NCBI GenBank assembly: GCA_030640025.1 | Contig: DAOWKC010000002.1 | Location: 68,029-132,028 of the forward strand | DNA length: 64,000 nt | DNA from: Candidatus Woesearchaeota archaeon | GTDB lineage: Archaea > Nanobdellota > Nanobdellia > Woesearchaeales > JAGLXL01 | Direction: 5' to 3' | Shown: in pieces, positions 6,296-60,310 of the stretch | Position numbering within the stretch: position 1 is the first letter of the stretch | How the letters are laid out: each line of letters begins with the position of its first letter | The notes under the pieces: generated by a model | What the model saw: only the letters and a program-made list of their open reading frames with translations | Told to the model about the DNA's origin: nothing | Databases searched by the model: none | Position numbers and translations under genes: made by a program

Positions 6296-6334
6296 GGAAA
6301 AGTTTATATATACCTAATTTTGATGTGTTTAATT

Positions 6335-6672: not shown

Positions 6673-6685
6673 AACCTTACTTAAA

Positions 6686-6859: not shown

Positions 6860-6953
6860 TTTTTTAGTTATAATCTTCTTTTGGGGATGTGGTTTTGACA
6901 TTATCTTGGACAAGGTGGAAATATTTATAAGTAACAAAAAATTCCAATCAAAT

Positions 6954-33731: not shown

Positions 33732-33755
33732 ATGACAAAGTTTTCTGTAGAATTG

Positions 33756-34946
33756 ATGAGAAGGAATAAAAGAGGTCAAGCTTCGGCAGCCGCAGCATTG
33801 ATTGCGATAATTGCTGCTTTGATTGTTCTATACATACTTTTTATTCCGCCATCTGAAAGAGCTAAGATTTTAGAAGGTGACGGATTAAATGGTGAAACTG
33901 GAATTGGGGTGAGTGTGGTAGAAGAGAATGAGACTTTGCTGCTAGAGAGTCCTGGTCGGATTGATTTTTTAAGTCAAAAAACAGTTGACCATGCAGTGCC
34001 CACGACGCATGTGTTTACGCGGACAGAAGGACTGGTTTTAGAGAAAAAGGCTTCTCTTTATATTAAAAAATCTCTATTTAGTTCAAAACAAGAAAATGTT
34101 TCGTTTAGGATTAGTGATTTGGTTAATACAGAAAATATTTTGTTGAGTGGGGTGGTGAAAGAAGGCCAAGGTAGATTGATGATTTTCTTGAATGAAAATG
34201 AAATTTATAATTCTGAGGTTAGGGGAAATATTCCGGCAATTGAATTGCCAAGGAGATTATTGAAGACGGACAATACTTTATTGTTTAAGGTTTCTTCACC
34301 AGGGGCTGCTTTCTGGAGAACAAATGAATATAGTCTAGAAAATGTTCAAGTGGCAGCTGATGTGACCAGTATAGAAGCCCAGTCAAGCAGAAGCTTGTTT
34401 TTGGTTTCAGCAACTGAGAAAAATAATTTAGATAGAGTTGCTTTGAAATTTGAACCTGACTGCACTAGGGATTCAGGCAGGCTTGATGTTTATATTAATG
34501 AGTATAATATTTATTCTGCAGTGCCTGATTGCGGCGGCGGAAGACTGAAATTAGAATTTTCACCAGCTTATTTGAGGATTGGAGAGAATGAACTAATCTT
34601 TAGGATTGGTTCTGGTGATTATTATTTGGACCACATTGCGATTCAATCTGAATTAAAAACAATTGATTTCCCGGTTTATTATTTTGAGCTTTCAGATGAA
34701 GAATTTACAGATGTTGAAGAAGGTGATTCTCAAGTAGTTTTAAGATTGAGTTTTATTGATTATATTGAGGAGAAAAGAGGAGAGATCATCTTAAACGGCC
34801 ATTTAAGTGGTTTTGACACCAAGGAATTAAGCTGGGAAACAGATGTTTCTGATGACATAGTCAGAGGTAATAATGGTGTGCAAATCAGGCCAAGGAAGAC
34901 TTTGGATATACGGGAATTAGAAGTTATTTTGGCTCCTTCTGAGTAA
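33756..34946 (+). CDS. secreted protein with class III (type IV pilin-like) signal peptide
   Basis: N-terminus MRRNKRG-QASAAAALIAIIAALIVLYILF has a short basic region, a G-Q putative prepilin peptidase site and a hydrophobic helix. The ORF track starts at 33732, but the TATA position favours the Met at 33756. Confidence 0.5.
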   Translation: MRRNKRGQASAAAALIAIIAALIVLYILFIPPSERAKILEGDGLNGETGIGVSVVEENETLLLESPGRIDFLSQKTVDHAVPTTHVFTRTEGLVLEKKASLYIKKSLFSSKQENVSFRISDLVNTENILLSGVVKEGQGRLMIFLNENEIYNSEVRGNIPAIELPRRLLKTDNTLLFKVSSPGAAFWRTNEYSLENVQVAADVTSIEAQSSRSLFLVSATEKNNLDRVALKFEPDCTRDSGRLDVYINEYNIYSAVPDCGGGRLKLEFSPAYLRIGENELIFRIGSGDYYLDHIAIQSELKTIDFPVYYFELSDEEFTDVEEGDSQVVLRLSFIDYIEEKRGEIILNGHLSGFDTKELSWETDVSDDIVRGNNGVQIRPRKTLDIRELEVILAPSE

Positions 34947-35117
34947 GACAGCGAAAAACAAGTTTTGCTGGGGTTTTTTAGCAAAAACCTTACGAAAATC
35001 AGAGATGCTCAGAAGCAAGCTTCTGGCACCAACTTTGTTGGTTTTCTAAGTTTTACTTTTGGAAGCAAAACTTTTTAAAGAATAAAGGTTTAGTTTTAGT
35101 TATTAAAAGAGGTTGGA

Positions 35118-37004
35118 ATGGCTAAATTAAGCAAAGAAGAAAGGAGGGAGATGGAGAGCGCAGAGTTACAAAGAAGAGCTAAAGCAGGTACAGCAAGTGA
35201 AGCAGAGAAAGAACGTTTAAAAGAAACGATTGCAAAAAAGAAAAGAGCTCAAGCACGACCAGCGCCTTCTCCAAAACCTGCTCCAACACCAAGTGCTCCT
35301 TCAACACCTGCTCCAAGCACGCCGGCTCCGACACCAGCTCAAGCTAAAGAAAGTTACTGGAAAAGGATGAGGGCTGGAGAAAGGCTTGGATCTGCAGCCG
35401 GCGGTATAAGGGATATTGGTAGTGGACTTTTAGGGCTTGGTGCAGGAGGAGCTGAAAAAGCAGCATCTTTGCCTGAAAGCTGGTTTATTTTATTAGTTCT
35501 TTTAGGAGCATTAGGGTCTATTTTCAAACGTTATATGGGTTATAACCCCGCTACTTATTTATCATTTTCAATTATTTTATTGGTTATTTTCTTGATGACA
35601 GTGAGGCATAACAAGACTTATGTGATTATAGTCCTGGTTACTTTTTTTATTGATACTTTTGGGACTCAGCTGCCGTTGTATTCCTTGCCAGACATGGTGA
35701 GTTTTATCAAAGGTTTTCTGGCTTTTGCCAATGTTTTCAGCTGGTTTTTCTTATCTTTGATTTTATTTTGGTTAAACTATTCTAAACTCCAAGAGGAAGG
35801 CAAGGAGACGTCTTGGCTGGGTTGGATAATTGTAGTGGGGACCTTTTTGTTGCTGATTTTTTACACGGTGCCGGCCCTAAAGAATACTTTACAAACACAC
35901 ACTGATTATTTTGGGATAGCTGAAGAACAATATGAAGAAGTTAAGGAAATTACTCAAGCTCGAGTTGAGGAGTGGAAAGAAGTTTATTATCGATTTGGCT
36001 GTTCATTGAGCCAACCGATGGATATTGAAGAGTGTACGATGAGGAAAATAGCAGAGGTGAGATGCAAGCCCTTTAAGGATGCGGGTGAAACAAAGAAGTA
36101 TGAAGAATGTATAAAAACTGAGATGGGATTAGGAGTGGCAGTGACAGGAATAGTTGACCCAGTGATGGATGAACCATTAGAATTAGTTTGGGAGCAAGGC
36201 CCAGAATTTGGAAAAACTGAAATTTTTTTAGTAGGTGTGCCAACTTTTACAGCTAAATTAAAAGTAAAAAATCCGAGAAAAGATAGATTAGATTTGAAAT
36301 TGAGTTGTAGTTTTGCTGATTTGGTTGATAAGGAAAATGTGAGCGGGTCTATTTTTTCAACTTTAGGCGAGGATTTTACTTTTGAAGAAAAATCAAAGGA
36401 AATTGAAGTGGTTTGTTCTCCACTAGAGATTTTAGAAGCAGGTAAAAGATACAGAGTAACTTATGAAGTAGAGTTGGTTGATTTTTCAACCAAGTCCAAA
36501 CTCCAGATGTTGTTTATTGGCGGAGGAAAGAAAGACAAGATAAAAAGGATGTTTAAGTCTGATTATTTTTTAGCTGGAAAATCAAGAGCGGCCAAGGATT
36601 TGGCGAGATTGAATTTAGACATGGGGAAAGAAGGTTATATTGAGGGTGTTGATGTGATTCAACTGGCATCTTCAGTTGAAAATATCGGTGGGGGAGAAAT
36701 TACTAATGTAAAAAAGGTTGAGATTGATTTGCTGGCGCCAGGCATTGGTGTTAATGATTTAGTCAAGACGCAACCTTGTACTTTAGAGGGTGAAACAACT
36801 TTATCAATTCATCCCCAGGTAATTTTGTCCCAAAAAAGACAAAAAGTAATTTTAGGGGGGGTATGTTTTTTAAGGTTAGGGAGTGCTTTAAAAAATCCAG
36901 AAGAATTTTTGAAAGTGGTGGAATTTCATGGCGATTTAGTTTATTCGTATCAGACTAAAGGTGAATTTTTTACTCCAACAATTAAAGTGGTGGGAACAGG
37001 ATGA
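35118..37004 (+). CDS. large membrane protein (cytoplasmic coiled-coil N-terminus, Pro/Ala/Thr-rich linker, 5 TM helices, ~380-aa extracytoplasmic Cys-containing domain)
   Basis: Hydrophobic segments at ~aa 120-250. PAPSPKPAPTPSAPSTPAPSTPAPTP linker. No catalytic motifs recognised. Confidence 0.5.
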   Translation: MAKLSKEERREMESAELQRRAKAGTASEAEKERLKETIAKKKRAQARPAPSPKPAPTPSAPSTPAPSTPAPTPAQAKESYWKRMRAGERLGSAAGGIRDIGSGLLGLGAGGAEKAASLPESWFILLVLLGALGSIFKRYMGYNPATYLSFSIILLVIFLMTVRHNKTYVIIVLVTFFIDTFGTQLPLYSLPDMVSFIKGFLAFANVFSWFFLSLILFWLNYSKLQEEGKETSWLGWIIVVGTFLLLIFYTVPALKNTLQTHTDYFGIAEEQYEEVKEITQARVEEWKEVYYRFGCSLSQPMDIEECTMRKIAEVRCKPFKDAGETKKYEECIKTEMGLGVAVTGIVDPVMDEPLELVWEQGPEFGKTEIFLVGVPTFTAKLKVKNPRKDRLDLKLSCSFADLVDKENVSGSIFSTLGEDFTFEEKSKEIEVVCSPLEILEAGKRYRVTYEVELVDFSTKSKLQMLFIGGGKKDKIKRMFKSDYFLAGKSRAAKDLARLNLDMGKEGYIEGVDVIQLASSVENIGGGEITNVKKVEIDLLAPGIGVNDLVKTQPCTLEGETTLSIHPQVILSQKRQKVILGGVCFLRLGSALKNPEEFLKVVEFHGDLVYSYQTKGEFFTPTIKVVGTG

Positions 37005-37873
37005 AAAAAATAATTTGTTTGGTTTTGATTGGAATGATTTTTTTAGTTGGTTGTGATACTTTGGGTTCGTTTTTTGGAGAAACAGAAAGAGCTAAGTTTG
37101 TAGATTATAAAAAAGGGATAAGTGGTTTAGAAATTGGAAGTGTGGAGGGCCTGCCGCCAAGTGAACTTTATGAAGGGGGTAATTTTAAAATTGCAGCCAA
37201 ACTGCAAAATAAAGGCGGTTATGATCTTCAAAGAGGAACAATTGAAATTGCTGGTTTTGATAGAAGATATATTGTTTTAAACCAGGAACCAAAAAGAGAT
37301 TTGCCGCCAATTGCAGGAAAAAGTATAACCGGCACTGAGGGAGGATTTTATATTGAAGAATTTGACGGGCAGGTTCTGAGGCGTTTGGATAAGGCAAGGG
37401 AATATGAGGCCAATTATTACCTAGTAGCTACTTATGATTATCGTTCAGAAGCAAAAACAGATGTTTGTATTAATACAAATCTTTATTCAGATTTGAGATT
37501 ATCTGAAGACAGCTGCAAGCCAGAAGAAAGCATTAGTTTGGGGGGCCAAGGAGCACCAATCTCAATCACCAAAGTTGAAGAAGTGATTGTGCCTGAAGGT
37601 GACAGAACCAGGATTGTTTTTAGACTTTATTTGAAAAATAAAGGGGATGGAGTCTTAACCAGTCCAATAACTATTGAAGAAGTGAAATTATCCAATCAAA
37701 GGTTGAGTTGTGAGCAAAGTTTCTTGGAGTTGGAGGAAGAAGATAATGTAGTGGTTTGTGTTGCTTATGAAAATCAACCAGCAAATTATATAACTCCTTT
37801 TTATGCAGCAATAAGCTACACTTATCAAATTGTAGAGCAAAATAGTTTTACGATTAAAGGCATAAAGGTTTAG
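37001..37873 (+). CDS. lipoprotein, family paralog 1 (LVGC lipobox)
   Basis: MKKIICLVLIGMIFLVGC signal + lipobox. Shared motifs TEGGF and GGQGAPISI with the next two genes. Confidence 0.55.
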   Translation: MKKIICLVLIGMIFLVGCDTLGSFFGETERAKFVDYKKGISGLEIGSVEGLPPSELYEGGNFKIAAKLQNKGGYDLQRGTIEIAGFDRRYIVLNQEPKRDLPPIAGKSITGTEGGFYIEEFDGQVLRRLDKAREYEANYYLVATYDYRSEAKTDVCINTNLYSDLRLSEDSCKPEESISLGGQGAPISITKVEEVIVPEGDRTRIVFRLYLKNKGDGVLTSPITIEEVKLSNQRLSCEQSFLELEEEDNVVVCVAYENQPANYITPFYAAISYTYQIVEQNSFTIKGIKV

Positions 37874-37911
37874 AAAGATTTATATAAAAAATAAGTCTTA
37901 TTTTGGTTATT

Positions 37912-38841
37912 ATGAAAAGATGGTGGATAGGATTAATGTTGAGTATATTGTTGGTAGGTTGTCAACCATTAGTTGGTGGAGGAGAGACGCCTGAAGAAAC
38001 AAGTGGTTTATCTCGATATGCTCGTTCTGGTTTTCAAGGTTTAGATATGCGATTTATCCAAGACCTACCGCCAAATTCATTGTGGGATGTGGCTGAATTA
38101 GTAATTGTTAACGAATTAAAGAATGTCGGCTCTTATAATATTGAGGCAGATAAGTGTTTTATTGAAGTGAGTGGGATTGACAGGAATATTGTCAGGAATT
38201 TACAGCCAGGTATTCGTCAATCTTGTGATGATATTGAAGGGAAGAGTGTTTATAATACTGAAGGTGGTTTTAACCAGATTGAATTTCAATCAGCCAGTAT
38301 TATCTTGCCTGAAGGAGTTGACAGATATGCTCCTAATATTGTTTTAAGCGCCTGTTATAATTATAAAACAATAGCCAGCCCCCAAGTTTGCATTGATCCT
38401 GGATTTTATCAATTGACCTCAGAACAGAAATCCTGTCAAGTAAGGGATGTGCCTTTAGGTGGAGGTCAAGGTGCGCCGGTTTCAGTTGATAATGTCAAAG
38501 TGGATATGGTGGGGCAGAAAGCTATTTTTCAATTGGATATCAGCAATACAGGCCCAGGAAGAGTGGTCTCACCAAGAGCTGCTTTAAATCAATGTCCTGG
38601 CAATATGAGATATGATGATTTTGATGAAGTTGGATTTATTATTTCTTTATCAGGAGAATTCCCTGAAAAATGCACGCCAAGTGATCATTTAGTTAGGTTA
38701 ACTAATAATAAAGGAAAGGTATTCTGTACTTTTAATGTTGGAAGTACAGCTGCTTATGAAGCTCCTTTGAATATTGAATTGAATTATAAATATTTACAAT
38801 CAATCTCCAAGAAAGTTGAGATTGTTAAAACTCCGAGTTGA
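37912..38841 (+). CDS. lipoprotein, family paralog 2 (LVGC lipobox)
   Basis: MKRWWIGLMLSILLVGC. Shared motifs NTEGGF and GGGQGAPVSV. Confidence 0.55.
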   Translation: MKRWWIGLMLSILLVGCQPLVGGGETPEETSGLSRYARSGFQGLDMRFIQDLPPNSLWDVAELVIVNELKNVGSYNIEADKCFIEVSGIDRNIVRNLQPGIRQSCDDIEGKSVYNTEGGFNQIEFQSASIILPEGVDRYAPNIVLSACYNYKTIASPQVCIDPGFYQLTSEQKSCQVRDVPLGGGQGAPVSVDNVKVDMVGQKAIFQLDISNTGPGRVVSPRAALNQCPGNMRYDDFDEVGFIISLSGEFPEKCTPSDHLVRLTNNKGKVFCTFNVGSTAAYEAPLNIELNYKYLQSISKKVEIVKTPS

Positions 38842-38854
38842 GGTACTGAGAAAA

Positions 38855-39772
38855 ATGAAAAAAATTATTTTAGGTTTGGTTTTGATTGTGGTTTTATTTT
38901 TAGCTGGCTGTGGTGATGATGATGAAGGAGGCGCCCAAGTAGGTTCTGTTTTTGAAGGCGGTTCTCAAGGCATAGTGGCAAGTTTTGAGCCTTTTGGGAT
39001 CCAAGAAGAAGGTGTTTATGTAATTTATGACACTGAGAATTTTCCAATTGAAGTGAATGTCAAAAATAAAGGGGAAGAAGATATTGCAGCAGGTGATTTG
39101 GTGGTTAAGTTGAAAGGGATTAACTTAAATGATTTTGAAAACATTCCAGCAGCAATAAAAAGTAATGAAAGAATGATTGAAAAGGTCTCTGAATTTAATA
39201 GAGAAGGTGGTGAAGAGATTATTGATTTTACTCCGCTTTCTGAAGCTGCTAAGTACAAGCACTCAATCACTGGATTTTATCAGCCAGATATTTTTGCAAC
39301 AATTGAGTACAAGTATAAAACAAGAGTAATTGTGCCTAAGGTTTGTTTTAAAGAAGATTTAAATGATGAAAGTGTTTGTGATGTTAAGGAGAGCAAGGAT
39401 GTTTTTGTTTCTGGCGCACCAATTTTAGTCAAGTCAGTAAAAGAAGATTCAGCAGGCAGAGGTGTGATGATCTTGACATTTGAAATTGAAAATGCTGGCG
39501 GCGGCAAAGTAACTAAAGTTGGTGAAGCATTTGACTTGAGATATGGACAGCTGGCCTTTAACATGAAAACTGACCCGGGAATGTGGGAATGCAGAAGTGC
39601 AGGCAAAATAAATGAAGCAAGATTAATTGACGGGAAAGCAACAGTGATTTGTAGATTAAAAGAAGCGCTGCCAGCTGGAACTTTGTATACCAAGCAAATT
39701 GAGTTGGAATTAAGTTATGTTTATCGATCAGTAATGTCAGAAAGTATAAGAATTAAGGAGAGTTTGAGTTAA
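38855..39772 (+). CDS. lipoprotein, family paralog 3 (LAGC lipobox)
   Basis: MKKIILGLVLIVVLFLAGC. Weaker versions of the shared motifs (REGGEE, SGAPILV). Confidence 0.5.
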   Translation: MKKIILGLVLIVVLFLAGCGDDDEGGAQVGSVFEGGSQGIVASFEPFGIQEEGVYVIYDTENFPIEVNVKNKGEEDIAAGDLVVKLKGINLNDFENIPAAIKSNERMIEKVSEFNREGGEEIIDFTPLSEAAKYKHSITGFYQPDIFATIEYKYKTRVIVPKVCFKEDLNDESVCDVKESKDVFVSGAPILVKSVKEDSAGRGVMILTFEIENAGGGKVTKVGEAFDLRYGQLAFNMKTDPGMWECRSAGKINEARLIDGKATVICRLKEALPAGTLYTKQIELELSYVYRSVMSESIRIKESLS

Positions 39773-42638
39773 GAACAAAAGCAAGGAAAGCTTCGAGTTG
39801 GACAAATTCGTCTGAGCCTTCCACCATTCTAAATTCTATTTCACCACAGTGAGTTATAAGCTTGACTTTTAATTGGTCTGGTATTTCGAGATTCCAGATT
39901 TCTCTTTGGATTTGTTTGATGATGTCGAGGCCAGAGAGGCCGTGCTGGAGCATAGTGTCAATGAGTTTGTTTCGTGAAGGGATAAATTGTTGATTTAAAG
40001 CGAGGTTAAGGACTTCTTTGATTTCTTTGGGCTTGGCAGCAGAAACCATAGAATAAATGTCCTCTGGGGCGATAGACTCTCCTTTTGGTTTTACAGCAAA
40101 GCAGCTTTGCATAATATTTGTTAATTTCCGACAATCTCCATTAGAAACTTCAATTAATGCTTTTTTGACGTGAGGAAGAACAGACTGTTGAAATTCTCCC
40201 CCTTCTTCCTTGGCAATTTTTTCAATCACTTTAGAAATATCTTCTTCTTTAAGCGGTTTAAAATGAAAAACTGCACAACGAGATTGAATAGGATCGATTA
40301 TTTTGGATGAGTAATTACAATTATGAGAAACGAAACCATTGGTGATAAAATTATGGTCTTTTTGGCAGGTTATGTCCATAACCAATTCTTCATCAACTTC
40401 TTTTATTTCATCGATTTCATTGATGAAGAGGGTGCTGTTGAATTTATAATTTTTGATCCACTCATCAAAAATGATAAATTTACTTCTAGGAAGATGGACA
40501 TCTTTTCCTTTTCTTTGGTTGGCAACAAAATCAAGGGTAACATCATATTCTTTAGCAATCACCCCGATTGATTTGCCAGAATTTGTTTGAGTAAGTATTA
40601 ATTTTGATTTTTCCTTCCAAGAATTGATTAAATGGTATTTATGACGCAAATATTCTGCTGATAACTTTGCTAATCTTATTTTGTATGTTTCATAAGCATA
40701 TCCTATTTGAGAAAAAAACTTGAAGAGGTTATGATTATTGGGTTTTATTACTAAGCCAAAAGTTAATACTGGAATATTGTCTCTTTTTCTTATTTCTTTT
40801 CTGTCGATGATTTTGATGTAAGTTTCTACTTCGAACTCTTCAAACAGATTAGAAAGTTCTTGATAAAAATTAATCATTGATATTTTGAGATAAATTGATT
40901 TATTTTGTCTAAGTAGAATTGCCTCAAAATTCATTTTTTTACAATGGGGTTTATCAGCATCACAACCAAACAAAGCTCTTAAGAATTCTCGTTTGACGAA
41001 TTTTGTGCCTTTTTTAATAAACTCCGGTACAGTATAGGGAGTTATTGTTTTATCTCCTTTTGGGATACCAAAAAATTGCAAAAGTAATGACAAAGGTCTG
41101 GAATCAAGCGTAAACGAGGTTGTTGTTCCTACAAATTCTCTTCCTCGGATTATATTTTTTAAAGTGACTGACTTAATTTTTGAGTAATTGGAGTGCTTTA
41201 AAATGTCTAAGTCTTTCATTACTTCTTTTAATGCTTCTCGATTACCAGAAAAATGAAGCCTGATGCTATTACGGACGAGATGGCCATCTCCTAACATAAA
41301 ACCACAGATTCTTGTCAAAGCTCCAATTTTTTCAATATCATTGAAAGTTATATCTAACAATTCTTTTCTTTTAAGTTCGCCAAGAACTCTGTCAATTCGG
41401 CCTCTAAAAATTGTTGAATCAATTGATTCCCTAACAGCTGAATAGGATATTTTGAGATTAAATTCTTTTTCTATGATTTTTCTGATATCCATATCATTTC
41501 TGAGAGTTATTGGCTCTGAATTAGTGATTAAAAAAGAGTGGGTTTTTTTGTTGATAATTCTTTTGATATAACCTTTTTTCACTAAAGAAAGAAGGAGGTA
41601 ATTTGTTCCCATACGAGTGAGACATAATTTTTCTTGTAATTTTTTTCTTGTGATTTGGTGGTTTTGTTTGATTAAGTTATAGAGTTCAAACTCTCTTTCT
41701 GTCAGCCCCTTATCTTCTTTTATTATCTTTCTTAATTCTTCTATTTTTTGAATGATTTTTTCTTTTTCAGTTGATTTAAGTCTTCTAAACCTTGAAGCCG
41801 TTTCAATTGTTTCTAAACCATCCTGCTCTTCCGTGGTAGAAAGGAATTTTATAAATTTATCAAGATCAATAATTTTGTTAGAATTGTCTTCAACTGGTGT
41901 TCCTTCAAGATGTGGATGGATCAATAAGTTATCTTCTTTTGTTATCTTACCTGCCTCTTTCCAACCATCGATTGTCAGAAGTTGGTGGTCGTCTGTGACT
42001 TTAATCTTCTTTCCAGTCATGGTAGTTATTTCAAGTACTTTTTTGCCAATTAATCTAGGGGGGAGTTTAACGGCAGCTAAAACAAGGTCTTTTTTAGTTG
42101 AATCTCTATTTTTTGAAATATTTTGGATGTGTATTTGCCCGGTTTTATGTTCATATTGATCAATAAATTTTTCTATCATAATCTCTCTTTCTTGTGGTAA
42201 AAGAATTTTTGTATCAGGAGTAACACAGGCCAGAACAAAACGGCAGGTTTTGGTGTAATTTTCCATAGTTCTTCTTAGAGCCTGCTGAGCTTCTTTGGTT
42301 AAGGCGTCTGATTCGTCCAAGTAAATGATTTTGAAAGGGACGTCTCCAATGGCTTTGGTGCGGGCAAAGTCTTTGACTTTGTTTCTGACTATATCGATGC
42401 CGCGTTCGTCAGAAGCATTTAATTCAAGAAAGTTTTGATGCCAGCTACCTTGGAAAAGCTGCTTGGCAATGACTAAGGCTAAGGAGGTTTTACCAACTCC
42501 AGCCGGTCCTGAGAAAAGAAGATGAGGCATATTTTTTTGCTGGACAAAGGCTTCTATTCGTTTAACTATTTCATTCTGGCCATAAACATCTGAGAAATTT
42601 TCAGGCCTGTACTTTTCAGTCCACATTGCAGGGGTCAT
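39753..42638 (-). CDS. rfcS: replication factor C small subunit containing one 636-aa intein
   Basis: Exteins total 325 aa with Walker A GPAGVGKTS, DEAD-like YLDESD and SRC motif (IQSRCAVFHF). The insertion splits the sequence between RFVLA and CNYSSKII. Confidence 0.9.
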   Translation of the reverse strand: MTPAMWTEKYRPENFSDVYGQNEIVKRIEAFVQQKNMPHLLFSGPAGVGKTSLALVIAKQLFQGSWHQNFLELNASDERGIDIVRNKVKDFARTKAIGDVPFKIIYLDESDALTKEAQQALRRTMENYTKTCRFVLACVTPDTKILLPQEREIMIEKFIDQYEHKTGQIHIQNISKNRDSTKKDLVLAAVKLPPRLIGKKVLEITTMTGKKIKVTDDHQLLTIDGWKEAGKITKEDNLLIHPHLEGTPVEDNSNKIIDLDKFIKFLSTTEEQDGLETIETASRFRRLKSTEKEKIIQKIEELRKIIKEDKGLTEREFELYNLIKQNHQITRKKLQEKLCLTRMGTNYLLLSLVKKGYIKRIINKKTHSFLITNSEPITLRNDMDIRKIIEKEFNLKISYSAVRESIDSTIFRGRIDRVLGELKRKELLDITFNDIEKIGALTRICGFMLGDGHLVRNSIRLHFSGNREALKEVMKDLDILKHSNYSKIKSVTLKNIIRGREFVGTTTSFTLDSRPLSLLLQFFGIPKGDKTITPYTVPEFIKKGTKFVKREFLRALFGCDADKPHCKKMNFEAILLRQNKSIYLKISMINFYQELSNLFEEFEVETYIKIIDRKEIRKRDNIPVLTFGLVIKPNNHNLFKFFSQIGYAYETYKIRLAKLSAEYLRHKYHLINSWKEKSKLILTQTNSGKSIGVIAKEYDVTLDFVANQRKGKDVHLPRSKFIIFDEWIKNYKFNSTLFINEIDEIKEVDEELVMDITCQKDHNFITNGFVSHNCNYSSKIIDPIQSRCAVFHFKPLKEEDISKVIEKIAKEEGGEFQQSVLPHVKKALIEVSNGDCRKLTNIMQSCFAVKPKGESIAPEDIYSMVSAAKPKEIKEVLNLALNQQFIPSRNKLIDTMLQHGLSGLDIIKQIQREIWNLEIPDQLKVKLITHCGEIEFRMVEGSDEFVQLEAFLAFVLNSNSP
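40320..42227 (-). mobile_element. intein (Cys...His-Asn, +1 Cys) with LAGLIDADG homing endonuclease domain, inside rfcS
   Basis: Begins CVTPDTKILL directly after extein RFVLA. Ends GFVSHN followed by C. Contains a LAGLIDADG-type block ICGFMLGDGHL. Confidence 0.8.
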
Positions 42639-47943: not shown

Positions 47944-48064
47944 AAAGAGAAACGGTAATTAGTTATTTATAAGCTTTTGGGAAAATTGATTTTAAAAAGT
48001 TCCTATTTTTAAGCCTATTTTAATCTGTTCTTTTGATTGTTTATTTCATTTATTAAAAGAATAA

Positions 48065-48262
48065 TCACTTACTCAAGTCTTCGACTTCTTTATCTCCTAT
48101 CACGTCTGTGATAGATCTTTTTTTATCTCCTAACTCTATCCAAACTATTTCAGATTCCTTTGGAAAGCAAGGTTTTCCTATGTATTGTCCAGGTTTATAA
48201 GTTTCACAATTTTCAAGAACTTCCTCTGGAATTCCATCAGACCAACTATATCTATTTTCCAT
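48065..48262 (-). CDS. hypothetical small protein
   Basis: 65-aa ORF with no motif. Kept only as a possible gene. Confidence 0.2.
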   Translation of the reverse strand: MENRYSWSDGIPEEVLENCETYKPGQYIGKPCFPKESEIVWIELGDKKRSITDVIGDKEVEDLSK

Positions 48263-48413
48263 ATTAAATCCATCTCTCTTATTTTCCTACTTTAATATTT
48301 CTTGGTATGGTTTCTCTATCTAAATCAGCCATAATAAATCCGTATGGGTGGGGATATAAAAAGTTTTTGTTTTTAGCATATAAACACCCTTTCATTCCTC
48401 ACAGTCATTGAGA

Positions 48414-52861: not shown

Positions 52862-53368
52862 ATGAGATTAACAGAAAAAAAGATTGAAGAAGTCGTTAAA
52901 TACGCAGTTGGCAATGATGTGCTTAAATTGGTTAAAAAATTGTCTAAAAAGGACAATATTTCTGAATTTAAGCTGGCTGATCAACTTAAAGAAGATATTA
53001 AGAGAGTCAGGAACATGCTTTATCGTCTTTATGAGTTAAATTTGGTTTCTTTTAACAGGAAAAAGGACAAGAAAAAAGGATGGTATATTTATTCTTGGAC
53101 ATTTAAAAAAGACCAGATTAAGTATTTATATCACAAAATAAAGAAAGAGAGGCTGGATAAGCTGCAAGAAACATTAGAATACGAGCAAAAAGAACAATAT
53201 TTTATCTGCCCTGACAATTGTGTGAGGTTAAATTTTGATCAAGCTGTTAATTTTGAATTTAGATGTCCTGAATGTAATAAATTAGTTTCACAAGAGGATT
53301 TAAGCAAAAGAATTGAGGAAATCAAAAAAGAAGTTAAAGAATTGAAAAAAGAATTGGCAAAAATCTAA
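52862..53368 (+). CDS. tfe: transcription factor E (TFE/TFIIE-alpha homolog)
   Basis: N-terminal winged helix plus zinc ribbon (CPDNC...CPECN). Confidence 0.75.
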   Translation: MRLTEKKIEEVVKYAVGNDVLKLVKKLSKKDNISEFKLADQLKEDIKRVRNMLYRLYELNLVSFNRKKDKKKGWYIYSWTFKKDQIKYLYHKIKKERLDKLQETLEYEQKEQYFICPDNCVRLNFDQAVNFEFRCPECNKLVSQEDLSKRIEEIKKEVKELKKELAKI

Positions 53369-53369
53369 A

Positions 53370-53567
53370 TTAACGTTTTCTTTTGGATAATATCTTTTTC
53401 TCGGTTTTGAGGACTTGCCGAGTCATTTTTTGGAGGTTTTCTTCCATGCCAGCAATTCTTCTTTCTAAAACAACCAAAACCCTTAAAGAATAAACAATAG
53501 CAGCGAGAGTGCCAATAATAATCGCTAAGGTAAATTCAGCAACAGATAAGCCAACCATTTTTTTCAC
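53370..53567 (-). CDS. hypothetical small membrane protein
   Basis: Single TM helix followed by a basic C-terminus. Confidence 0.3.
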   Translation of the reverse strand: MKKMVGLSVAEFTLAIIIGTLAAIVYSLRVLVVLERRIAGMEENLQKMTRQVLKTEKKILSKRKR

Positions 53568-53569
53568 CT

Positions 53570-54011
53570 CTATTTGAAATTTAGTAATAAGTTAAGTATA
53601 ATTAAAATCTATTTAAATGTTTTTGTTGTTTGTTTTGGTGTTTGGGTTGAATTTAAGTTAAAATAGTGTGAGACCTTGGTTTCCTGTGGAGATTTTGGTT
53701 GTGGTTGGGTTTGGTGTGGGGTTTTTTGTTTTATTTATATTATAAAATGGTTATTTTATATTATATATATTACAGTAAATAAAAACATTGTATTATTATA
53801 TTATTTACTATATTGAAAATAATTATATAATATGATATATCGTCGATAAAAATTTTTATTTGTTTATTTAAAAATGTATTTTAGATTATATATTTTCTAA
53901 TATGGTTTTGAAGATTTTCATTTTTCAAATTGAAATAATTTATAAAGAAGGCGGTATTCCAAAAAAACAAAGGAAGTTCCATAAGAAAGGTTAGGGTCAG
54001 CCCGGGGGAAG
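53570..54011. other. predicted chromosomal replication origin (oriC): ORB-like box + G-rich tract, AT-rich DUE, second ORB-like box + G-string, directly upstream of orc1/cdc6
   Basis: The first ORB-like box is GTTTCCTGTGGAG (53679-53691), followed by a G/T-rich tract (53697-53725). A >85% A+T stretch runs 53730-53935. The second box is GTTCCATAAGAAAGG (53976-53990) with G-string CCCGGGGG (54001-54008). Largest non-coding gap in the window. Confidence 0.6.
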
Positions 54012-55223
54012 GTGTTTGAAATGAAGAAGTTCAACAGGTTTTTTGACGAGTTTTTAAAAAAAGAACCTTTATTCTTGAATAAAGAGGTTTTGCAATCGTT
54101 TTATACTCCTGATGACATCTCTCACAGGGACAGCCAAATTAAGGAAGTGGCCAATGTTCTGGCTCCGGCCCTGAGAATGGAAAGTCCTTCTAATCTTTTT
54201 ATTTACGGCAAAACCGGTTCTGGAAAAACATTGGTGACTAGATATGTGACAAGTTTAATGAAAAAAACAGCTGAAAAAAACAAAATCAATTTGAAGGTTT
54301 TTTATTTGAACTGTAAATTAAAAAAAGTGGCTGACACAGAATACCGCTTGATGGCGCAGTTAGCTAAAGAATTTGGCAAGGCGGTGCCTTCAACCGGCCT
54401 GCCGACAGACGAGGTTTATACCATCTTTTATGAAGCGCTTGACAGCCAAGAACAATTGTTTATTTTAATTCTCGATGAGATAGACCAATTAGTTAAAAAA
54501 GCTGGTGATGACATTCTTTATAATTTAACCAGAATCAACGCCGAATTAAAGAAATCAAAACTATCAATTATTGGAATTTCTAATGATTTGGTTTTTGTTG
54601 ATAGTTTAGATCCTAGAGTAAAAAGCAGTCTGTCTGAAGAAGAAGTCTTATTCCCCCCTTACAATGCTTTACAAATCCAGGACATTCTCAAAAAAAGATC
54701 AACCAAAGCATTCAAAAAAAATACTGTGGCTGCTGGAGTGATTGAAAAATGTTCAGCTTACGCGGCAAGAGAACACGGTGACGCCAGAAGAGCCTTAGAA
54801 TTAATGAGGGTGGCTGGTGAATTAGCAGAAAGACAATGCTTGGAAAAAATTGAGATAAAACATATTGATGAGGCAGAAGAGAAAATCGAAAGGGACAGGG
54901 TTTTGGACATTACTCTGAATCAACCCAAACAATTTCAAGTAGTACTCTATGCGATTGTTTTACTTTCTGAAAAAAGGAGAAATATTTTCACAGGAGAGAT
55001 TTATGAAATTTACAAAAAAATCTGTTCTGAGATTAAATTAAGGCCTTTGACACAGAGAAGAGTTTCAGATATGCTGGCAGAATTAGATATGATGGGGATT
55101 ATTAATGCTAAAATAATTTCCAAAGGCAGATACGGGAGAACAAGAGAAATTACTTTGTCAATTGCTCAGTCAACTATCCCAAAGATCAAAGAAGTTCTGG
55201 ATAAGTCTTTTGGTTTAAAATAA
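54012..55223 (+). CDS. cdc6: Orc1/Cdc6 replication initiator
   Basis: AAA+ Walker A YGKTGSGKT, Walker B ILDEID, and C-terminal winged helix. Confidence 0.9.
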   Translation: MFEMKKFNRFFDEFLKKEPLFLNKEVLQSFYTPDDISHRDSQIKEVANVLAPALRMESPSNLFIYGKTGSGKTLVTRYVTSLMKKTAEKNKINLKVFYLNCKLKKVADTEYRLMAQLAKEFGKAVPSTGLPTDEVYTIFYEALDSQEQLFILILDEIDQLVKKAGDDILYNLTRINAELKKSKLSIIGISNDLVFVDSLDPRVKSSLSEEEVLFPPYNALQIQDILKKRSTKAFKKNTVAAGVIEKCSAYAAREHGDARRALELMRVAGELAERQCLEKIEIKHIDEAEEKIERDRVLDITLNQPKQFQVVLYAIVLLSEKRRNIFTGEIYEIYKKICSEIKLRPLTQRRVSDMLAELDMMGIINAKIISKGRYGRTREITLSIAQSTIPKIKEVLDKSFGLK

Positions 55224-55225
55224 AA

Positions 55226-56770
55226 ATGATTACTCAGGAAGTGATAGGGGATTTGTTTAAGAAAAAGATATTGTTAAGCAGAGATATTTCACAGGGTAGG
55301 TTGAGTTTTAAAGAGTTATCAATCATAGAAATCCCCGATAATTTTTTAGTCTTAAATAAAGACAATTTTTCTTTGTTAAAGAGAGACAAGACAATTAACT
55401 GGCAAAGTTTTGACGGCTTAAGGACGAGCTTTGAATTGGGAAATGAGGACGATTATTTAAATTTTTTATCTAGTTTAGAAGAAGAGAAAATTGAAGTGAT
55501 TAAAGATTCTAATTCTCGAGTTGATGTTATCCAAATGTATAAAAAAAAGACTAAAAAATATGAAGTGCAGGATTTTGTGAGATATTTTATCAAGCGTTAT
55601 AAAGGAATTGAAGCGATTTTAAGGAACAGGCAGGAGTTACAGGAAGTAATTTCAATTAATCGTCTGCTACAGAAGAGAGAAAAAGAAAATGTTTCAATTA
55701 TTGGTTTGGTGTCAGAAAAAAATATAACCAAGAACGGCAATGTTTTATTGAAGATTGAGGATTTGACTGGTTTGATTAATGTTTTAGTGAGCAAAAATAA
55801 AGGAGAGCTCTTCCAGCAAGCTAAAAATATCGTCCTTGATGAAGTAATTGGAGTGGTGGGTGTTTGCGGCGACAAAATTGTTTTTGTTAATTCAGTAATC
55901 TGGCCAGATATACCTTTGACTCAAGAATTAAAAAAAGCACAAGAGGATGTTTTTGTTTTGGTCTTATCTGATTTGCATGTGGGTTCGACTAATTTTTTAC
56001 CAGAAGAATTTAACCGTTTTTTGAAATGGATCAGAGGGGAGATGGGTGATGAAAAACAAAAAGAACTGGCCAGCAAGGTAAAATATATTTTTATTTGTGG
56101 TGATTTGGTTGATGGTGTGGGAATTTATCCAAACCAAGATTCTGAATTGGTGATCAAGGATATTTACCAACAATATGAGGAATGCGCCAGGTTGTTGAAA
56201 CAGATTCCTTCTCAGATTAAATTGATTATTGGTCCGGGAAATCACGATGCTTTGCGACTGGCTGAGCCACAGCCAGAACTGCCTAAGGATTTTGCCAAGG
56301 CACTTTATGAACTGCCAAATGCAACCTTTATCAGTAATCCAGCAACAGTAAAGATCCATGAGCAAGAAGGTTTTAGTGGTTTTGATGTCTTGGTTTATCA
56401 CGGCTATAGTTTTGATTTTTATTATACTGAAGTTGAAAGTTTAAGGATGGGTGGAGCAATGGACAAACCTTATTTAATCACTAAATTTTTATTGAAGAGG
56501 AGACATCTAGCGCCGACACATACTTCAACTCTTTATATTCCTGATATTGAGGAAGACCCATTGATTATCAACAAGTTGCCTGATTTTATTTTGACCGGCC
56601 ACATCCATAAACCAGGGGTGGCTAATTACAAAAATATCACAATTGTAGCAGGCAGCTGCTGGCAAAGCAAAACAAGTTTTCAAGAAAAAGTAGGGCATGA
56701 GCCAGAGCCAGGTAAGGTACCTTTAATTAATTTGAAAACACGAGAAATTAAAATTTTAAAATTTATGTAA
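55226..56770 (+). CDS. polB: DNA polymerase II (PolD) small subunit DP1
   Basis: Calcineurin-like phosphoesterase motifs (VLSDLHVGS, GDLVDG, GPGNHD, GHIH). Confidence 0.85.
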   Translation: MITQEVIGDLFKKKILLSRDISQGRLSFKELSIIEIPDNFLVLNKDNFSLLKRDKTINWQSFDGLRTSFELGNEDDYLNFLSSLEEEKIEVIKDSNSRVDVIQMYKKKTKKYEVQDFVRYFIKRYKGIEAILRNRQELQEVISINRLLQKREKENVSIIGLVSEKNITKNGNVLLKIEDLTGLINVLVSKNKGELFQQAKNIVLDEVIGVVGVCGDKIVFVNSVIWPDIPLTQELKKAQEDVFVLVLSDLHVGSTNFLPEEFNRFLKWIRGEMGDEKQKELASKVKYIFICGDLVDGVGIYPNQDSELVIKDIYQQYEECARLLKQIPSQIKLIIGPGNHDALRLAEPQPELPKDFAKALYELPNATFISNPATVKIHEQEGFSGFDVLVYHGYSFDFYYTEVESLRMGGAMDKPYLITKFLLKRRHLAPTHTSTLYIPDIEEDPLIINKLPDFILTGHIHKPGVANYKNITIVAGSCWQSKTSFQEKVGHEPEPGKVPLINLKTREIKILKFM

Positions 56771-56773
56771 AAA

Positions 56774-59700
56774 ATGGAAGCAAGCCCTGAGATGGATAAA
56801 TATTTTGAAGGAATAGAGAAAGAAACCTTAAGAGTTCACGAGGTCGCTGAAAAAGCCAGAAAAATAAATTTAGACCCAGAGGATAAGGTTGATATTCCCC
56901 TGGCCAAAAATATGGCAGAAAGAGTCGAGGGTTTGATTTCTTCTGTAGCTCCTAAATTAAGGGGTTCAGGCATGACCCAACGAATCAGAGAGTTAGAAGA
57001 AGAATTTGGTTTGTTGGATTGGAGAGTTGGTTTGAAAATTGCCGAGGAAGTTGCCAAGGAAAAGTTTTGTCAATTTGAGAATAAAGTAGAAGCAATGGAG
57101 GTGGGCATCAGAGTAGGTTTTGCTTATTTGACTTTGGGAATTGTTTCTGCGCCATTAGAAGGTTTTGTGGGTTTGAAGATTAAAAAAAGACAAGATGGTG
57201 GGGAATATTTTTCAGTTAGTTATGCAGGCCCGGTTAGGGGAGCTGGCGGAACAGCAGCAGCAACTTCAGTAATCTTATCTGATTATGTCAGGAGAGTAAT
57301 GGGCTATCAGCTTTATGATCCAAGTGAAGAAGAAGTTAATCGTTATGTAACTGAGATAAGGGATTATCATGAGAGGGTAACTAATCTACAATATTATCCT
57401 TCTGAAGAAGAATTGAGATTTTTAGCTAACCATATTCCAGTAGAAATTAACGGTGACCCAACTGAAAAATTTGAAGTTTCAAATTACAAAGATTTGCCTC
57501 GGGTGGAGACAAACAGAATTAGGGGAGGACTTTGTTTAGTCATGGCAGAAGGAGTAGCTCAGAAAGCACCTAAACTTTGGAAGAGATTAGGTAAGTGGGG
57601 GGATGAATTGGGTTTAGATTGGGGTTTTTTAAAAGAATTTTTAGATTTACAGAAGAGTGTTAAGGCCAGGAAGGAGAAAAAAATTGAAGGAAAAGGAATC
57701 CGGCCAAATTACACTTTTATTGCGGATTTGGTGGCAGGGAGGCCGATATTGACACATCCTTTGCGTCATGGTGGTTTTAGACTGAGATATGGAAGAGCCA
57801 GGGTTTCTGGTTTTTCAGCAACTTGTTTGCATCCAATGACTTTGTTTGTTTTGAATAAATATATTGCAATTGGAACCCAATTAAAGGTAGAGAGGCCGGG
57901 CAAGGCAACAGTTATTACTATCTGTGATTCAATTGAAGGGCCAATTGTGAAATTAAAAAATGGCTCTGTTTTGCGGTTAGCCGGGTTGGTGGAGTCAAAG
58001 GACATTTTAGAACAAATTGAAGAAATTATTTATTTGGGTGATATTTTGATTTCTTATGGTGATTTTTCTGAAAATGGCCATAAATTAGTGCCAGCTGGTT
58101 ATTGCGAGGAATGGTGGATTCAAGAGCTGGAAAAAGCAATGGTGGAAACTTTTGGCAGTATTGATATAGAGAAATTATCAGAGATGGTAGGTGTTGAGAA
58201 AGAGGAATTGGAGAAAATATGGGATGATTCGATGTTGCGGCCTAAATGGGGGGTGGCTTTGAAGATTTCAAAGGAAATGAAGGTTCCTTTATATCCTGGC
58301 TACACTTATTTTTGGCAGGCAGTTAATTTAGAGGAATTTAAAGAATTTTTAAATTGGATAATCAATGCAGAGGTAGAGAAGGGAGATGAGGGGGTGGTAA
58401 AGTTAATCTTGCCTTTGAAAGATTCTTCTTCGGCTAAGAGAGTTCTGGAGTTAATTGGAGTAGCTCATGTGGTGGCTGGCAATGAATATGTGGTAGTGGA
58501 GAAAGGAGAGGCTCAGGCTCTTTATAGTATTTTAGGATTAAATGATGTTGATGTGATTAAGGAAAAAGTAGAAGGCAGCAGCGATGTTTTAGAGGCAGTC
58601 AATAACTTGTCTGGATTAGTGGTGAGAGACAAAGGCGGGACTTTTATTGGAGCAAGGATGGGGAGGCCTGAGAAAAGCAAGATGAGAAAATTAGTGGGTA
58701 GCCCTCAAGTTTTGTTTCCAGTGGGCCAGGAGGGGGATCGGCTGCGGTCTTTTCAATCTGCTTTAGAGGCAGGCAAAATCAGAGCCGACTTTCCTTTGTT
58801 TTTTTGTGAAAAGTGCCAGAAAAAGACTATTTATCCTTCTTGTGAAATTTGCAATGGAAAAAATAAAGAGGTTTATTTTTGCAGAGTTTGCGGTGAAACC
58901 GACAAAAAAGAGTGTAAGCACGGCGAAGATAAGGAATTTAAGAAAAATGAGAGATTCAAAAAAGATGATTTAGATATCAAATATTATTTTGATAAGGCCT
59001 TGGCGAAGCTGGAGATGAGGACTTATCCTGATTTGATTAAAGGTGTCAGAGGAACATCCAATAAAGACCATGTCATTGAAAATTTAGTTAAAGGGATTTT
59101 AAGAGCCAAACATGATATTTATGTCAACAAAGACGGGACAACCAGGTATGACATGACAGAGCTGCCGTTGACTCATTTTAAACCAGTTGAGATAGGAACT
59201 TCAGTTGAAAAGTTGAAGGAACTGGGTTATGAAAAAGATATCAAGGGGAGGGAATTGGTTGATGGAGAACAGGTAGTGGAAATTAAACCCCAAGATATTA
59301 TTTTGCCCGGAGTAACTTCTTTAGATGAATCGGCTAAGAAGGTTTTGTTTAGAGTAAGTAAATTTATTGATGATTTATTAGAAGGATTATATGGTTTAGA
59401 GCCCTTTTATAATTTGGAGAGGGAGGATGATTTAGTGGGTCATGTGGTAGTAGGGTTGGCACCACATATTTCGGCTGGTTTGATGGGAAGGATAATTGGA
59501 TTTTCTTCTGCTCAAGGTTGTTATGCCCATCCTCTTTGGCATGCTGGTTTACGCCGGGATTGTGATGGCGATGAAAATTGTGTAATCTTGTTGCTAGATT
59601 GTTTTTTGAATTTTTCCAGACAGTTTTTGCCAGATATGAGGGGTTCAAGGACAATGGACAGTCCTTTGGTTTTGACGTCCCGTTTGATTCCTTCTGAAGT

Positions 59701-60310
59701 TGATGACCAAGCCCATGGTTTGGATATTGTTTGGAGTTATCCTTTGGAATTGTATGAAGGGGCTTTGGAATTCAAGAATCCTTGGGATATTTCAGTTGAG
59801 CAGATTAAGAATCGACTGGGAGATGAGAAGCAATATGAGAAAATGGGTTTTACTCATCAAACTACTAATATCAACTCAGGTGTGGTTTGTTCTGCTTATA
59901 AAACAATCCCAACCATGGAAGACAAATTAAAAGGGCAAATGGAATTAGCTCGGCGAATTCGGGCAGTGGAAACAAATGATGTGGCTCGTTTGGTGATTGA
60001 AAAACATTTTTTAAAAGATATTAAAGGGAATTTACGTAAGTTTAGTATGCAGCAATTTAGATGTGTGAAATGTAATGAGAAATTCAGGAGGCCGCCATTA
60101 TCAGGGGTTTGTAGGTGTGGGGGAAAGATTTTGTTTACAATTTCAGAAGGCTCGATTGTGAAATATTTAGAGCCGAGTTTGTCGTTGGCGCGTCAATTTG
60201 AAGTGGGACCTTATTTGCGGCAGACTCTGGATTTGTTGAAATCCAGGATTGAAGGTTTGTTTGGCAAGGATAAGGAAAGGCAAGAGACGATGGGTGCTTG
60301 GTTTGGTTGA
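56774..60310 (+). CDS. polC: DNA polymerase II (PolD) large subunit DP2
   Basis: 1178 aa. Cys clusters (CEKCQKK...CEIC...CRVCG and CVKCNEKFRRPPLSGVCRCGG) plus double-psi beta-barrel catalytic region. No intein. Confidence 0.9.
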   Translation: MEASPEMDKYFEGIEKETLRVHEVAEKARKINLDPEDKVDIPLAKNMAERVEGLISSVAPKLRGSGMTQRIRELEEEFGLLDWRVGLKIAEEVAKEKFCQFENKVEAMEVGIRVGFAYLTLGIVSAPLEGFVGLKIKKRQDGGEYFSVSYAGPVRGAGGTAAATSVILSDYVRRVMGYQLYDPSEEEVNRYVTEIRDYHERVTNLQYYPSEEELRFLANHIPVEINGDPTEKFEVSNYKDLPRVETNRIRGGLCLVMAEGVAQKAPKLWKRLGKWGDELGLDWGFLKEFLDLQKSVKARKEKKIEGKGIRPNYTFIADLVAGRPILTHPLRHGGFRLRYGRARVSGFSATCLHPMTLFVLNKYIAIGTQLKVERPGKATVITICDSIEGPIVKLKNGSVLRLAGLVESKDILEQIEEIIYLGDILISYGDFSENGHKLVPAGYCEEWWIQELEKAMVETFGSIDIEKLSEMVGVEKEELEKIWDDSMLRPKWGVALKISKEMKVPLYPGYTYFWQAVNLEEFKEFLNWIINAEVEKGDEGVVKLILPLKDSSSAKRVLELIGVAHVVAGNEYVVVEKGEAQALYSILGLNDVDVIKEKVEGSSDVLEAVNNLSGLVVRDKGGTFIGARMGRPEKSKMRKLVGSPQVLFPVGQEGDRLRSFQSALEAGKIRADFPLFFCEKCQKKTIYPSCEICNGKNKEVYFCRVCGETDKKECKHGEDKEFKKNERFKKDDLDIKYYFDKALAKLEMRTYPDLIKGVRGTSNKDHVIENLVKGILRAKHDIYVNKDGTTRYDMTELPLTHFKPVEIGTSVEKLKELGYEKDIKGRELVDGEQVVEIKPQDIILPGVTSLDESAKKVLFRVSKFIDDLLEGLYGLEPFYNLEREDDLVGHVVVGLAPHISAGLMGRIIGFSSAQGCYAHPLWHAGLRRDCDGDENCVILLLDCFLNFSRQFLPDMRGSRTMDSPLVLTSRLIPSEVDDQAHGLDIVWSYPLELYEGALEFKNPWDISVEQIKNRLGDEKQYEKMGFTHQTTNINSGVVCSAYKTIPTMEDKLKGQMELARRIRAVETNDVARLVIEKHFLKDIKGNLRKFSMQQFRCVKCNEKFRRPPLSGVCRCGGKILFTISEGSIVKYLEPSLSLARQFEVGPYLRQTLDLLKSRIEGLFGKDKERQETMGAWFG

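Follow-up and report, generated by a model that had tools for sequence, protein, structure and literature searches.

A candidate oriC1-type replication origin beside the orc1–polD genes of a Woesearchaeota archaeon, and a strand bias that runs through it

The minimal oriC1 of Haloarcula hispanica has been delimited by experiment as an AT-rich region and a pair of origin recognition boxes (ORBs) in inverted orientation; each ORB and each terminal G-string is required, the AAA+ domain of the initiator reads the G-string, and an extra G-rich inverted repeat immediately inside the ORBs acts as an enhancer (PMC3936714). In Pyrococcus abyssi and P. furiosus, long ORBs similarly form an inverted repeat around AT-rich DNA, and the origin is followed by orc1/cdc6, dp1 and dp2. 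Here we describe a locus of the same kind in a 64,000-nucleotide stretch (the window) from a Candidatus Woesearchaeota archaeon (GCA_030640025.1, contig DAOWKC010000002.1, positions 68,029 to 132,028). Judged by its sequence, the segment 53668–54002 of the window has the architecture that defines such origins, namely an inverted pair of ORBs (ORB-L and ORB-R), an AT-rich duplex-unwinding element (DUE) between them and an adjacent gene for an Orc1-1-type initiator, and we consider it probable that it is a functional, Orc1-dependent replication origin module of the oriC1 type. As an origin it is ordinary and of a kind already known; the main interest lies in a very strong strand bias that passes unchanged through what is otherwise a textbook origin.

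The ORBs were visible only through comparison across species, and a de novo repeat search inside the gap upstream of orc1 gave AT-rich chance pairs only and no ORB-like family. The comparison covered two close relatives (L001 and L004, whose Orc1 proteins are 87% and 82% identical to that of the window and whose genes lie in the same order beside a ~450-bp gap) and a wider set of one genome per species that provided 80 further orc1 loci (62–73% identical), making ~85 related Woesearchaeota/Nanoarchaeota loci overall. The lineage ORB, derived by k-mer enrichment and mismatch searches upstream of orc1 in the relatives, has the consensus TTCCATAGGAAAT-GAA-GGGGTG. We built an ORB position weight matrix (PWM) from the origins of other species, leaving out the window, L001 and L004, and scanned both strands of the 64 kb (128 kb of strand). 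ORB-L (53666–53694, minus strand) ranked first with 26.4 bits and ORB-R (53974–54002, plus strand) second with 16.6 bits, the third match reaching 10.8 bits. In 100 Markov-simulated windows, the maximum score was 11.5 bits on average and 24.2 bits at the highest, below the score of ORB-L in every case, and matches at the level of ORB-R (≥16.6 bits) occurred 0.13 times per simulation. The two ORBs are inverted around the AT-rich core and lie 286 bp apart, exactly the lineage median.

The original prediction had named two boxes, GTTTCCTGTGGAG (box 1, 53679–53691) and GTTCCATAAGAAAGG (box 2, 53976–53990), and both are present as claimed, each within one of the ORBs. It had also described a G-rich tract after each box. 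Such tracts exist on the plus strand (53692–53727, and AGGGTC...GGGGG at 53993–54008), but the one following box 1 is not the G-string of that box: the minus strand is the one that carries the conserved ORB, read from 53692 down to 53668, which puts the equivalent of its G-string left of the box. ORB-L has a degenerate G-string (GGTCTC vs GGGGT), and that of ORB-R is shifted by 1 nt.

Between the ORBs, the segment 53729–53928 has an A+T content of 88.5%, the maximum per 200 bp in the window, compared with 77.5% for the runner-up and a mean of 63.4% over the 64 kb; the predicted stretch of ~200 bp with more than 85% A+T is therefore real. Nearly all relatives have a 150-bp window of 80–99% A+T located 250–600 bp upstream of orc1, and the element is retained even in relatives with 54–61% G+C. 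The surrounding gap is free of open reading frames (ORFs) from 53568 to 54011, bounded on the left by the end of a minus-strand ORF of 62–65 aa (53567) and on the right by the start of orc1, for which GTG 54012 and ATG 54021 are candidates and gene callers pick the latter. It had been called the largest intergenic gap of the window, and this stands: two longer ORF-free stretches are not empty, 6296–6905 holding the RNase P RNA and 47944–48413 a 66-codon ORF read from the sequence. No Rfam match was found in 53300–54100 at E ≤ 1, nor any in the window at gathering score except the RNase P RNA, and the gap contains no tRNA. The ENA scaffold ERZ23498665 scaffold_3 (583,524 bp) contains the window, with the element at ~461.7 kb, and other assemblies of the organism have yielded one contig of 635,759 bp and one of 221,781 bp (GCA_023132895.1). 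The gap–orc1 junction is the same in the ENA scaffold, in a Logan contig from this organism and in three relatives, which makes a misassembly unlikely.

Conservation across the lineage follows the same elements. When the gaps of the window, L001 and L004 are aligned, diverged sequence is broken by a few conserved blocks, GTGAGACCTTGGTTTCnTGTGGA (53668–53690), TATTTACTATATTGAAAATAAT, CGTCGATA, AATTGAAATAATTTATAAAGAAG and TTCCATAgGAAA..GGGT (53977–54000), which mark just the ORBs, a mid-DUE block and a TATA block; the phylogenetic footprints of the ORBs coincide exactly with the boxes. In most relatives the distal ORB is on the minus strand, 300–800 bp upstream of orc1, and the proximal ORB on the plus strand, 25–220 bp upstream, so that the ORBs are inverted and their G-strings point away from the AT-rich core. 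The layout of minus-strand ORB, ≥85% A+T, plus-strand ORB and orc1 was found in 61 of the 68 loci with enough upstream sequence, with a median spacing of 286 bp, although the gaps of the species sharing it are otherwise unalignable. The 500 bp upstream of orc1 contain ~2.3 ORB matches per locus, compared with 0.32 in the next bin out (−1000 to −500) and 0.00–0.10 per 500 bp over most of ±10 kb; part of this contrast is built in, as the matrix was trained on that upstream region.

The genes for orc1/cdc6, DP1 and DP2 directly follow the gap, as had been proposed, and Pfam matches confirm all three (Table 1). Among solved structures, the Orc1 of the window matches S. solfataricus Orc1-1 (2QBY_A, 2.4e-108) best, followed by A. 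pernix ORC1 (2V1U_A, 2.8e-97), both of them initiators crystallised on ORB DNA, with Orc1-3 (1.6e-43) and ORC2 (2.7e-12) scoring lower. Its DNA-contact motifs are conserved: the Gly-Leu of the initiator-specific motif (ISM; VPSTGLP), TQRRVSD as the helix of the winged helix (wH) and GRYGRTRE as its wing. Of these, the ISM Gly-Leu and the Arg of the wH helix have been identified as DNA contacts important for ORB binding (PMC3089459). The order oriC–cdc6/orc1–dp1–dp2 is of the Thermococcales type and recurs in L001, L004, L085 and L086, and the suggested synteny with the Pyrococcus origin locus (PMC1904270) holds.

If the module works as this architecture suggests, ATP-bound Orc1 would bind each ORB as a monomer, its winged helix touching the TTCCA..GGAAA dyad and the ISM of its AAA+ domain touching the G-string side. 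Binding would bend and underwind the DNA, helping it to melt, and bring MCM onto the AT-rich DNA between the two ORBs, where MCM loading would lead to firing in vivo. ORB-R sits between a putative TATA box (53939–53946) and the orc1 start codon, and because of this position Orc1 bound to it would probably also repress the orc1–dp1–dp2 operon. The recurrence of an ORB between promoter and start codon among the relatives suggests Orc1 autoregulation of the orc1–polD operon.

A third, minus-strand ORB-like element that overlaps a TATA-like box (e.g., TTCCAGAGGAAATGTAGGTTTATAAA) was observed 8–36 bp upstream of the orc1 match in a number of relatives, including L011, L012, L013, L020, L033, L034, L053 and others. 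Its position suggests promoter occlusion by Orc1 in lineages that may have short or leaderless orc1 transcripts.

Within the DUE, we observed a 14-bp palindrome, TTTCTATATAGAAA, that is present with at most one mismatch in 41 of 69 loci, whereas composition-matched shuffles have it in 1 of 69. On the median it lies at 0.475 of the interval between the ORBs; the window carries a degenerate copy, and a mid-gap block, TATTTACTATATTGAAAATAAT, is conserved in L001 and L004. The palindrome could be an AT-rich variant of an Orc1 half-site, a nucleus for cruciform formation or melting, or a bidirectional TATA element, and we found no description of it in the literature searched. The conserved block to the right of the DUE core is a probable orc1–polD promoter, given the archaeal TATA consensus and its position ~75 bp upstream of the ATG. 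The sequence of the GT-rich inner flank beside ORB-L is not conserved in close relatives (L004, three-genome alignment). Across the lineage, the 40 nt on the DUE side of the ORBs are rich in A and C on the ORB strand (C outnumbers G in 82 flanks, against 42) and thus in G and T on the other, and by its base composition the inner flank fits this lineage-wide tendency.

At the left boundary of the gap, the small minus-strand ORF is called as a gene at the equivalent place in L001, L004 and the source scaffold, and its start and Shine–Dalgarno block, CATTTTTTTCACCTC, are conserved in the three-genome alignment. Its transcription is directed away from the origin and its translation has no Pfam match. 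The conserved block between this ORF and ORB-L is probably its TATA-containing promoter, as suggested by a position ~45–55 bp upstream of the ORF start.

Table 1. Features of the candidate origin and adjoining genes, in window coordinates
Feature	Coordinates	Strand	Basis and remarks
Small conserved ORF, 62–65 aa, one hydrophobic helix	53370..53567	−	ORF list, translation
Conserved block AAGTATAATTAAA..TTATTTAAATGTTT	53597..53623		Invariant columns, three-genome alignment
ORB-L, 5'-TCTCCACAGGAAAC-CAA-GGTCTCAC-3'	53668..53692	−	Contains box 1; top PWM match
GT-rich, C-free inner flank between ORB-L and AT-rich core	53692..53727	+	Read from sequence
AT-rich DUE	53722..53971		86.4% A+T; core 53729–53928
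Degenerate palindrome copy TTTACTATATTGAAAA, mid-DUE	53804..53819		2 mismatches to TTTCTATATAGAAA
Conserved block AATTGAAATAATTTATAAAGAAG with TATA box TTTATAAA (53939–53946)	53928..53950	+	Three-genome alignment, nearly invariant
ORB-R, GTTCCATAAGAAAG-GTTA-GGGTCAGCC	53976..54002	+	Contains box 2; second PWM match
orc1/cdc6, Orc1-1/ORC1-type initiator	54021..55223	+	Pfam Cdc6_C, Cdc6_lid, AAA (54012–55223)
PolD small subunit DP1	55226..56770	+	2 bases after orc1; Pfam DNA_pol_E_B, Metallophos, OB fold
PolD large subunit DP2	56774..60310	+	Pfam PolC_DP2 N-terminal, central, catalytic; E-values 1e-89 to 1e-123

The exact ORB consensus 21-mer is also found in many metagenomic contigs, and most of these matches are without orc1. 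An ORB-like string alone thus does not diagnose an origin; it takes the combination of inverted pair, AT-rich core and adjacent orc1. At least 44 of 120 matches lie in a conserved gene in which the 21-mer encodes SIGNEGV followed by (TDRQ)n. This DPANN gene (~190–280 aa) combines an N-terminal coiled-coil-like region with a low-complexity linker of the (TDRQ)n type, for which (CAGA)n is the coding sequence, and a C-terminal winged helix-turn-helix; examples are L113 6073–6753, L188 5410–6075 and L164 5357–5923, in addition to at least 40 other loci, and in L113 and L135 it and orc1 lie on opposite sides of the origin, with 1.5 kb between this gene and the origin. In L092, L101, L138 and L141, isolated consensus ORBs stand amid repeated TGAGAC / GTCTCA iteron-like motifs with no orc1 nearby, and these may be origins of mobile elements using a host-type Orc1. 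Among the relatives, 15 of 80 contigs of metagenome-assembled genomes (MAGs) end inside the AT-rich region of the origin, 100–330 bp upstream of orc1 (L005, L006, L016, L017, L024, L026, L031, L032, L040, L054, L065, L072, L075, L076 and L078), which makes such origins a frequent assembly breakpoint in DPANN metagenome bins.

Two places with weaker ORB matches were examined and rejected as further clusters. At 48153–48269, three core-only matches lie inside the 66-codon minus-strand ORF (~48065–48265), and we read them as chance for that reason; the 470-bp stretch that contains this ORF (47944–48413) separates genes for a PAN-like AAA ATPase and an M24 peptidase, and measures only 15 bp in L004. 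For a Pyrococcus-like cluster in dp1/dp2, there were five weak core matches in DP2 but a single full-length match (10.8 bits), and in the relatives ORB matches are not enriched at this place; only 7 of ~82 have one ORB match at +2.0 to +2.5 kb.

The composition of the strands weighs against an origin that fires here in the usual way. The plus strand of the window contains 23.2% G and 13.4% C, and its third-position skew is positive for genes of both orientations, indicating a property of the strand and not a coding-strand effect. To the left and right of the element, respectively, the skew at four-fold sites is +0.18 and +0.23 for plus-strand genes and +0.78 and +0.69 for minus-strand genes; combining the two gives a strand component of +0.48 on the left and +0.46 on the right, the coding-strand effect being about −0.3 and −0.23. 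We extended the window with the source scaffold (10 kb to the left, L087, and 8.7 kb to the right, L089) and found no change of sign over the resulting 83 kb (window coordinates −10 kb to +72.7 kb). The GC-skew extremum that had been proposed as a check on the origin is thus absent at and near the element over these 83 kb, as is a compositional polarity switch. The strand preference of genes does not flip either, with 53 plus and 23 minus on the left and 9 plus and 5 minus on the right (70% on the plus strand), and a large plus-strand gene block at 10–24 kb (with ribosomal proteins L3, L4, L23 and L2 and SecY among its products) points toward the element and would meet a leftward fork head-on. 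The Pyrococcus chromosome has a skew switch at oriC, which this locus lacks.

The same pattern is seen in six relatives (L004, L007/L086, L064, L080, L084 and L085), which have strong skew of the same sign on both sides of the orc1 origin, positive relative to orc1 in some and negative in others; L085, an 868-kb JGI contig, contains 16.2% G and 24.5% C. Over 39 loci, the difference between right and left skew has a mean of 0.017 (Wilcoxon p = 0.89). Most other relatives show a coding-strand effect only, the apparent skew switches in L014, L073 and L050 are mostly effects of gene orientation, and L020 is the only relative with a genuine origin-type polarity change. A further point of the same tendency is that ORB-R is a weak copy in this genome, its equivalents in L001 and L004 scoring 26.5 and 28.0 bits. 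We found no description of GC skew in Woesearchaeota, or of these motifs in an origin context, in the literature searched. A bacterial-type skew pattern was reported in only 18 of 224 archaeal genomes (PMC7111523), and many verified archaeal origins lack a skew switch, which makes a switch supportive of an origin and not defining; the skew here is nevertheless strong. We take the gene arrangement shared by genomes with 82–87% Orc1 identity to have existed long enough for synonymous sites to re-equilibrate. Ordinary symmetric two-way firing over evolutionary time is then hard to reconcile with the composition data, and either the forks do not diverge symmetrically from this site or the origin that sets the skew lies elsewhere.

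Under the second of these possibilities, the element is a real cluster of Orc1 sites but a dormant or minor origin, kept mainly as an autoregulatory promoter of orc1–polD, and the forks that set the skew start elsewhere and pass from left to right. In favor, the strand component is uniform across the element within the 83 kb, and the six strongly skewed relatives, with bias of either sign, look as expected for a locus at an arbitrary place in a replichore. The placing of an ORB between TATA box and start codon, and in many relatives of a third, minus-strand ORB over the TATA-to-ATG interval, also agrees with a promoter function, and dormant orc1-linked origins are documented in Haloferax mediterranei (PMC4595724). 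On the other hand, 250 bp of more than 85% A+T with a central palindrome, kept in genomes of 54–61% G+C, far exceeds what autoregulation would need, the 83 kb examined contained neither another ORB cluster nor another AT-rich candidate, and no second initiator was seen in the sequence read. We regard a dormant origin as possible though unlikely.

Alternatively, one strand is G-rich over its entire length and the origin fires, but essentially one fork copies the chromosome, either by unidirectional theta replication or with origin and terminus side by side, and the same would apply to the six skewed relatives. We consider this rather doubtful. The occurrence of bias of either sign relative to orc1 fits a skew-setting origin elsewhere slightly better, and the strong conservation of the unwinding element fits firing at this site better. 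A third remaining reading, to which we assign no likelihood, is that the strand bias comes from something other than the direction of forks; we know of no mechanism for such a bias. That the gap is a mere AT-rich divergent promoter region with chance matches to the ORB is very improbable: intergenic DNA is AT-rich anyway in a genome of 37% G+C, TCC-N-GGA patterns are common (the window has 18 core-only ORB matches above 9 bits, most of them inside genes) and the exact lineage 21-mer also occurs inside a coding motif elsewhere, but the full-length scores of the ORBs are the top two in the window with ORB-L above all 100 simulations, the inverted layout, spacing and AT-rich core recur in 61 of 68 species with unalignable gaps, and the footprints fall exactly on the boxes, so that the comparative data effectively refute it.

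The call of an oriC1-type origin module is itself routine, yet, for a large DPANN lineage that is uncultivated, it provides an ORB consensus, an inverted layout, a spacing of ~290 bp and a palindrome at mid-DUE. The module can be used to anchor genome starts, it accounts for many MAG contigs breaking just upstream of orc1, and it offers defined substrates for Orc1 and MCM biochemistry. The strand bias raises the larger question. If the bias never inverts along the genome, these archaea would replicate asymmetrically, which to our knowledge has no precedent among cellular archaeal chromosomes; if it inverts elsewhere, a deeply conserved orc1-linked origin would not be the one replicating the chromosome.

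Upstream of the gap are genes for TFE-alpha, Hjc, an RNase Z-like protein and a class I (Trp/Tyr-type) tRNA synthetase (Pfam), and other replication genes in the window encode MCM, an intein-containing RFC small subunit and GyrA. The gene for the RFC small subunit (39753–42638, minus strand) is interrupted by the intein, with Pfam Intein_splicing across residues 149–773, and that for DNA gyrase subunit A (8–2365, plus strand) encodes 811 aa in full, its start lying just before the window. An archaeal RNase P RNA is located at 6335–6672 (plus strand; 144.7 bits). A five-protein operon at 33732–39772 (plus strand) has no Pfam match and includes three tandem paralogues (37001–37873, 37903–38841 and 38816–39772) that are 26–33% identical.

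Compared with the Pyrococcus oriC, the locus lacks an array of 13-bp mini-ORBs and has just two ORBs, GAA and the G-string stand closer together, and a second ORB or mini-ORB cluster of the Thermococcales type is missing from the dp1 of this window, where no PWM match of ≥10 bits occurs in 55226–56770. The boxes had been thought diverged and hence informative about Orc1 recognition, a view that the comparison does not support. The lineage consensus (TTCCATAGGAAATGAAGGGGT / TTCCATAGGAAATGAAGGGGTG) is near P. furiosus ORB1, TTCCAGTGGAAATGAAACTCTGGGGGG (reverse complement of the oligonucleotide in PMC1904270), the first 14 nt of ORB-L, TCTCCACAGGAAAC, are identical to the start of the 22-mer TCTCCACAGGAAACGGAGGGGT (PMC5376975), and the Orc1 contact motifs are kept. 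In line with this, the initiator is nearest to the Orc1-1/ORC1 proteins of S. solfataricus oriC1 and A. pernix oriC1 (2QBY, 2V1U), including the ISM and wH motifs. We take the 22-mer to be the A. pernix ORB4 duplex crystallised with ORC1 in 2V1U. Both of these species carry two or three origins along with several paralogues of Orc1. A further difference is the degenerate G-string of ORB-L, GGTCTC in place of GGGGT.

The GT-rich inner flank is positionally analogous to the enhancer repeat of H. hispanica, but it follows a compositional tendency and is not a perfect repeat, it is one-sided in the window, and the extended G-strings of the halophile type are absent. Among DPANN archaea, Candidatus Forterrea (Diapherotrites) also has a predicted origin next to cdc6, and its cumulative GC skew has the origin extremum at that site (PMC5905446); here the skew runs through, which again speaks against an ordinary origin. 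A similar strand composition is found among bacteria. Microgenomates belonging to the Candidate Phyla Radiation (CPR; order UBA1400) have a monotonic skew of comparable size over the whole chromosome, with 29.8% C and 15.0% G, for which unidirectional replication or proximity of origin and terminus has been proposed (PMC7143001). Those are complete genomes, whereas here 83 kb were examined and a switch elsewhere is possible. The likeness consists in a strong G/C disparity between strands that is unrelated to gene orientation and does not invert where expected, in small-genome organisms of the episymbiont type. Should a single fork copy the chromosome from the origin described here, the Woesearchaeota pattern would be to archaea what the monotonic skew of CPR Microgenomates is to bacteria.

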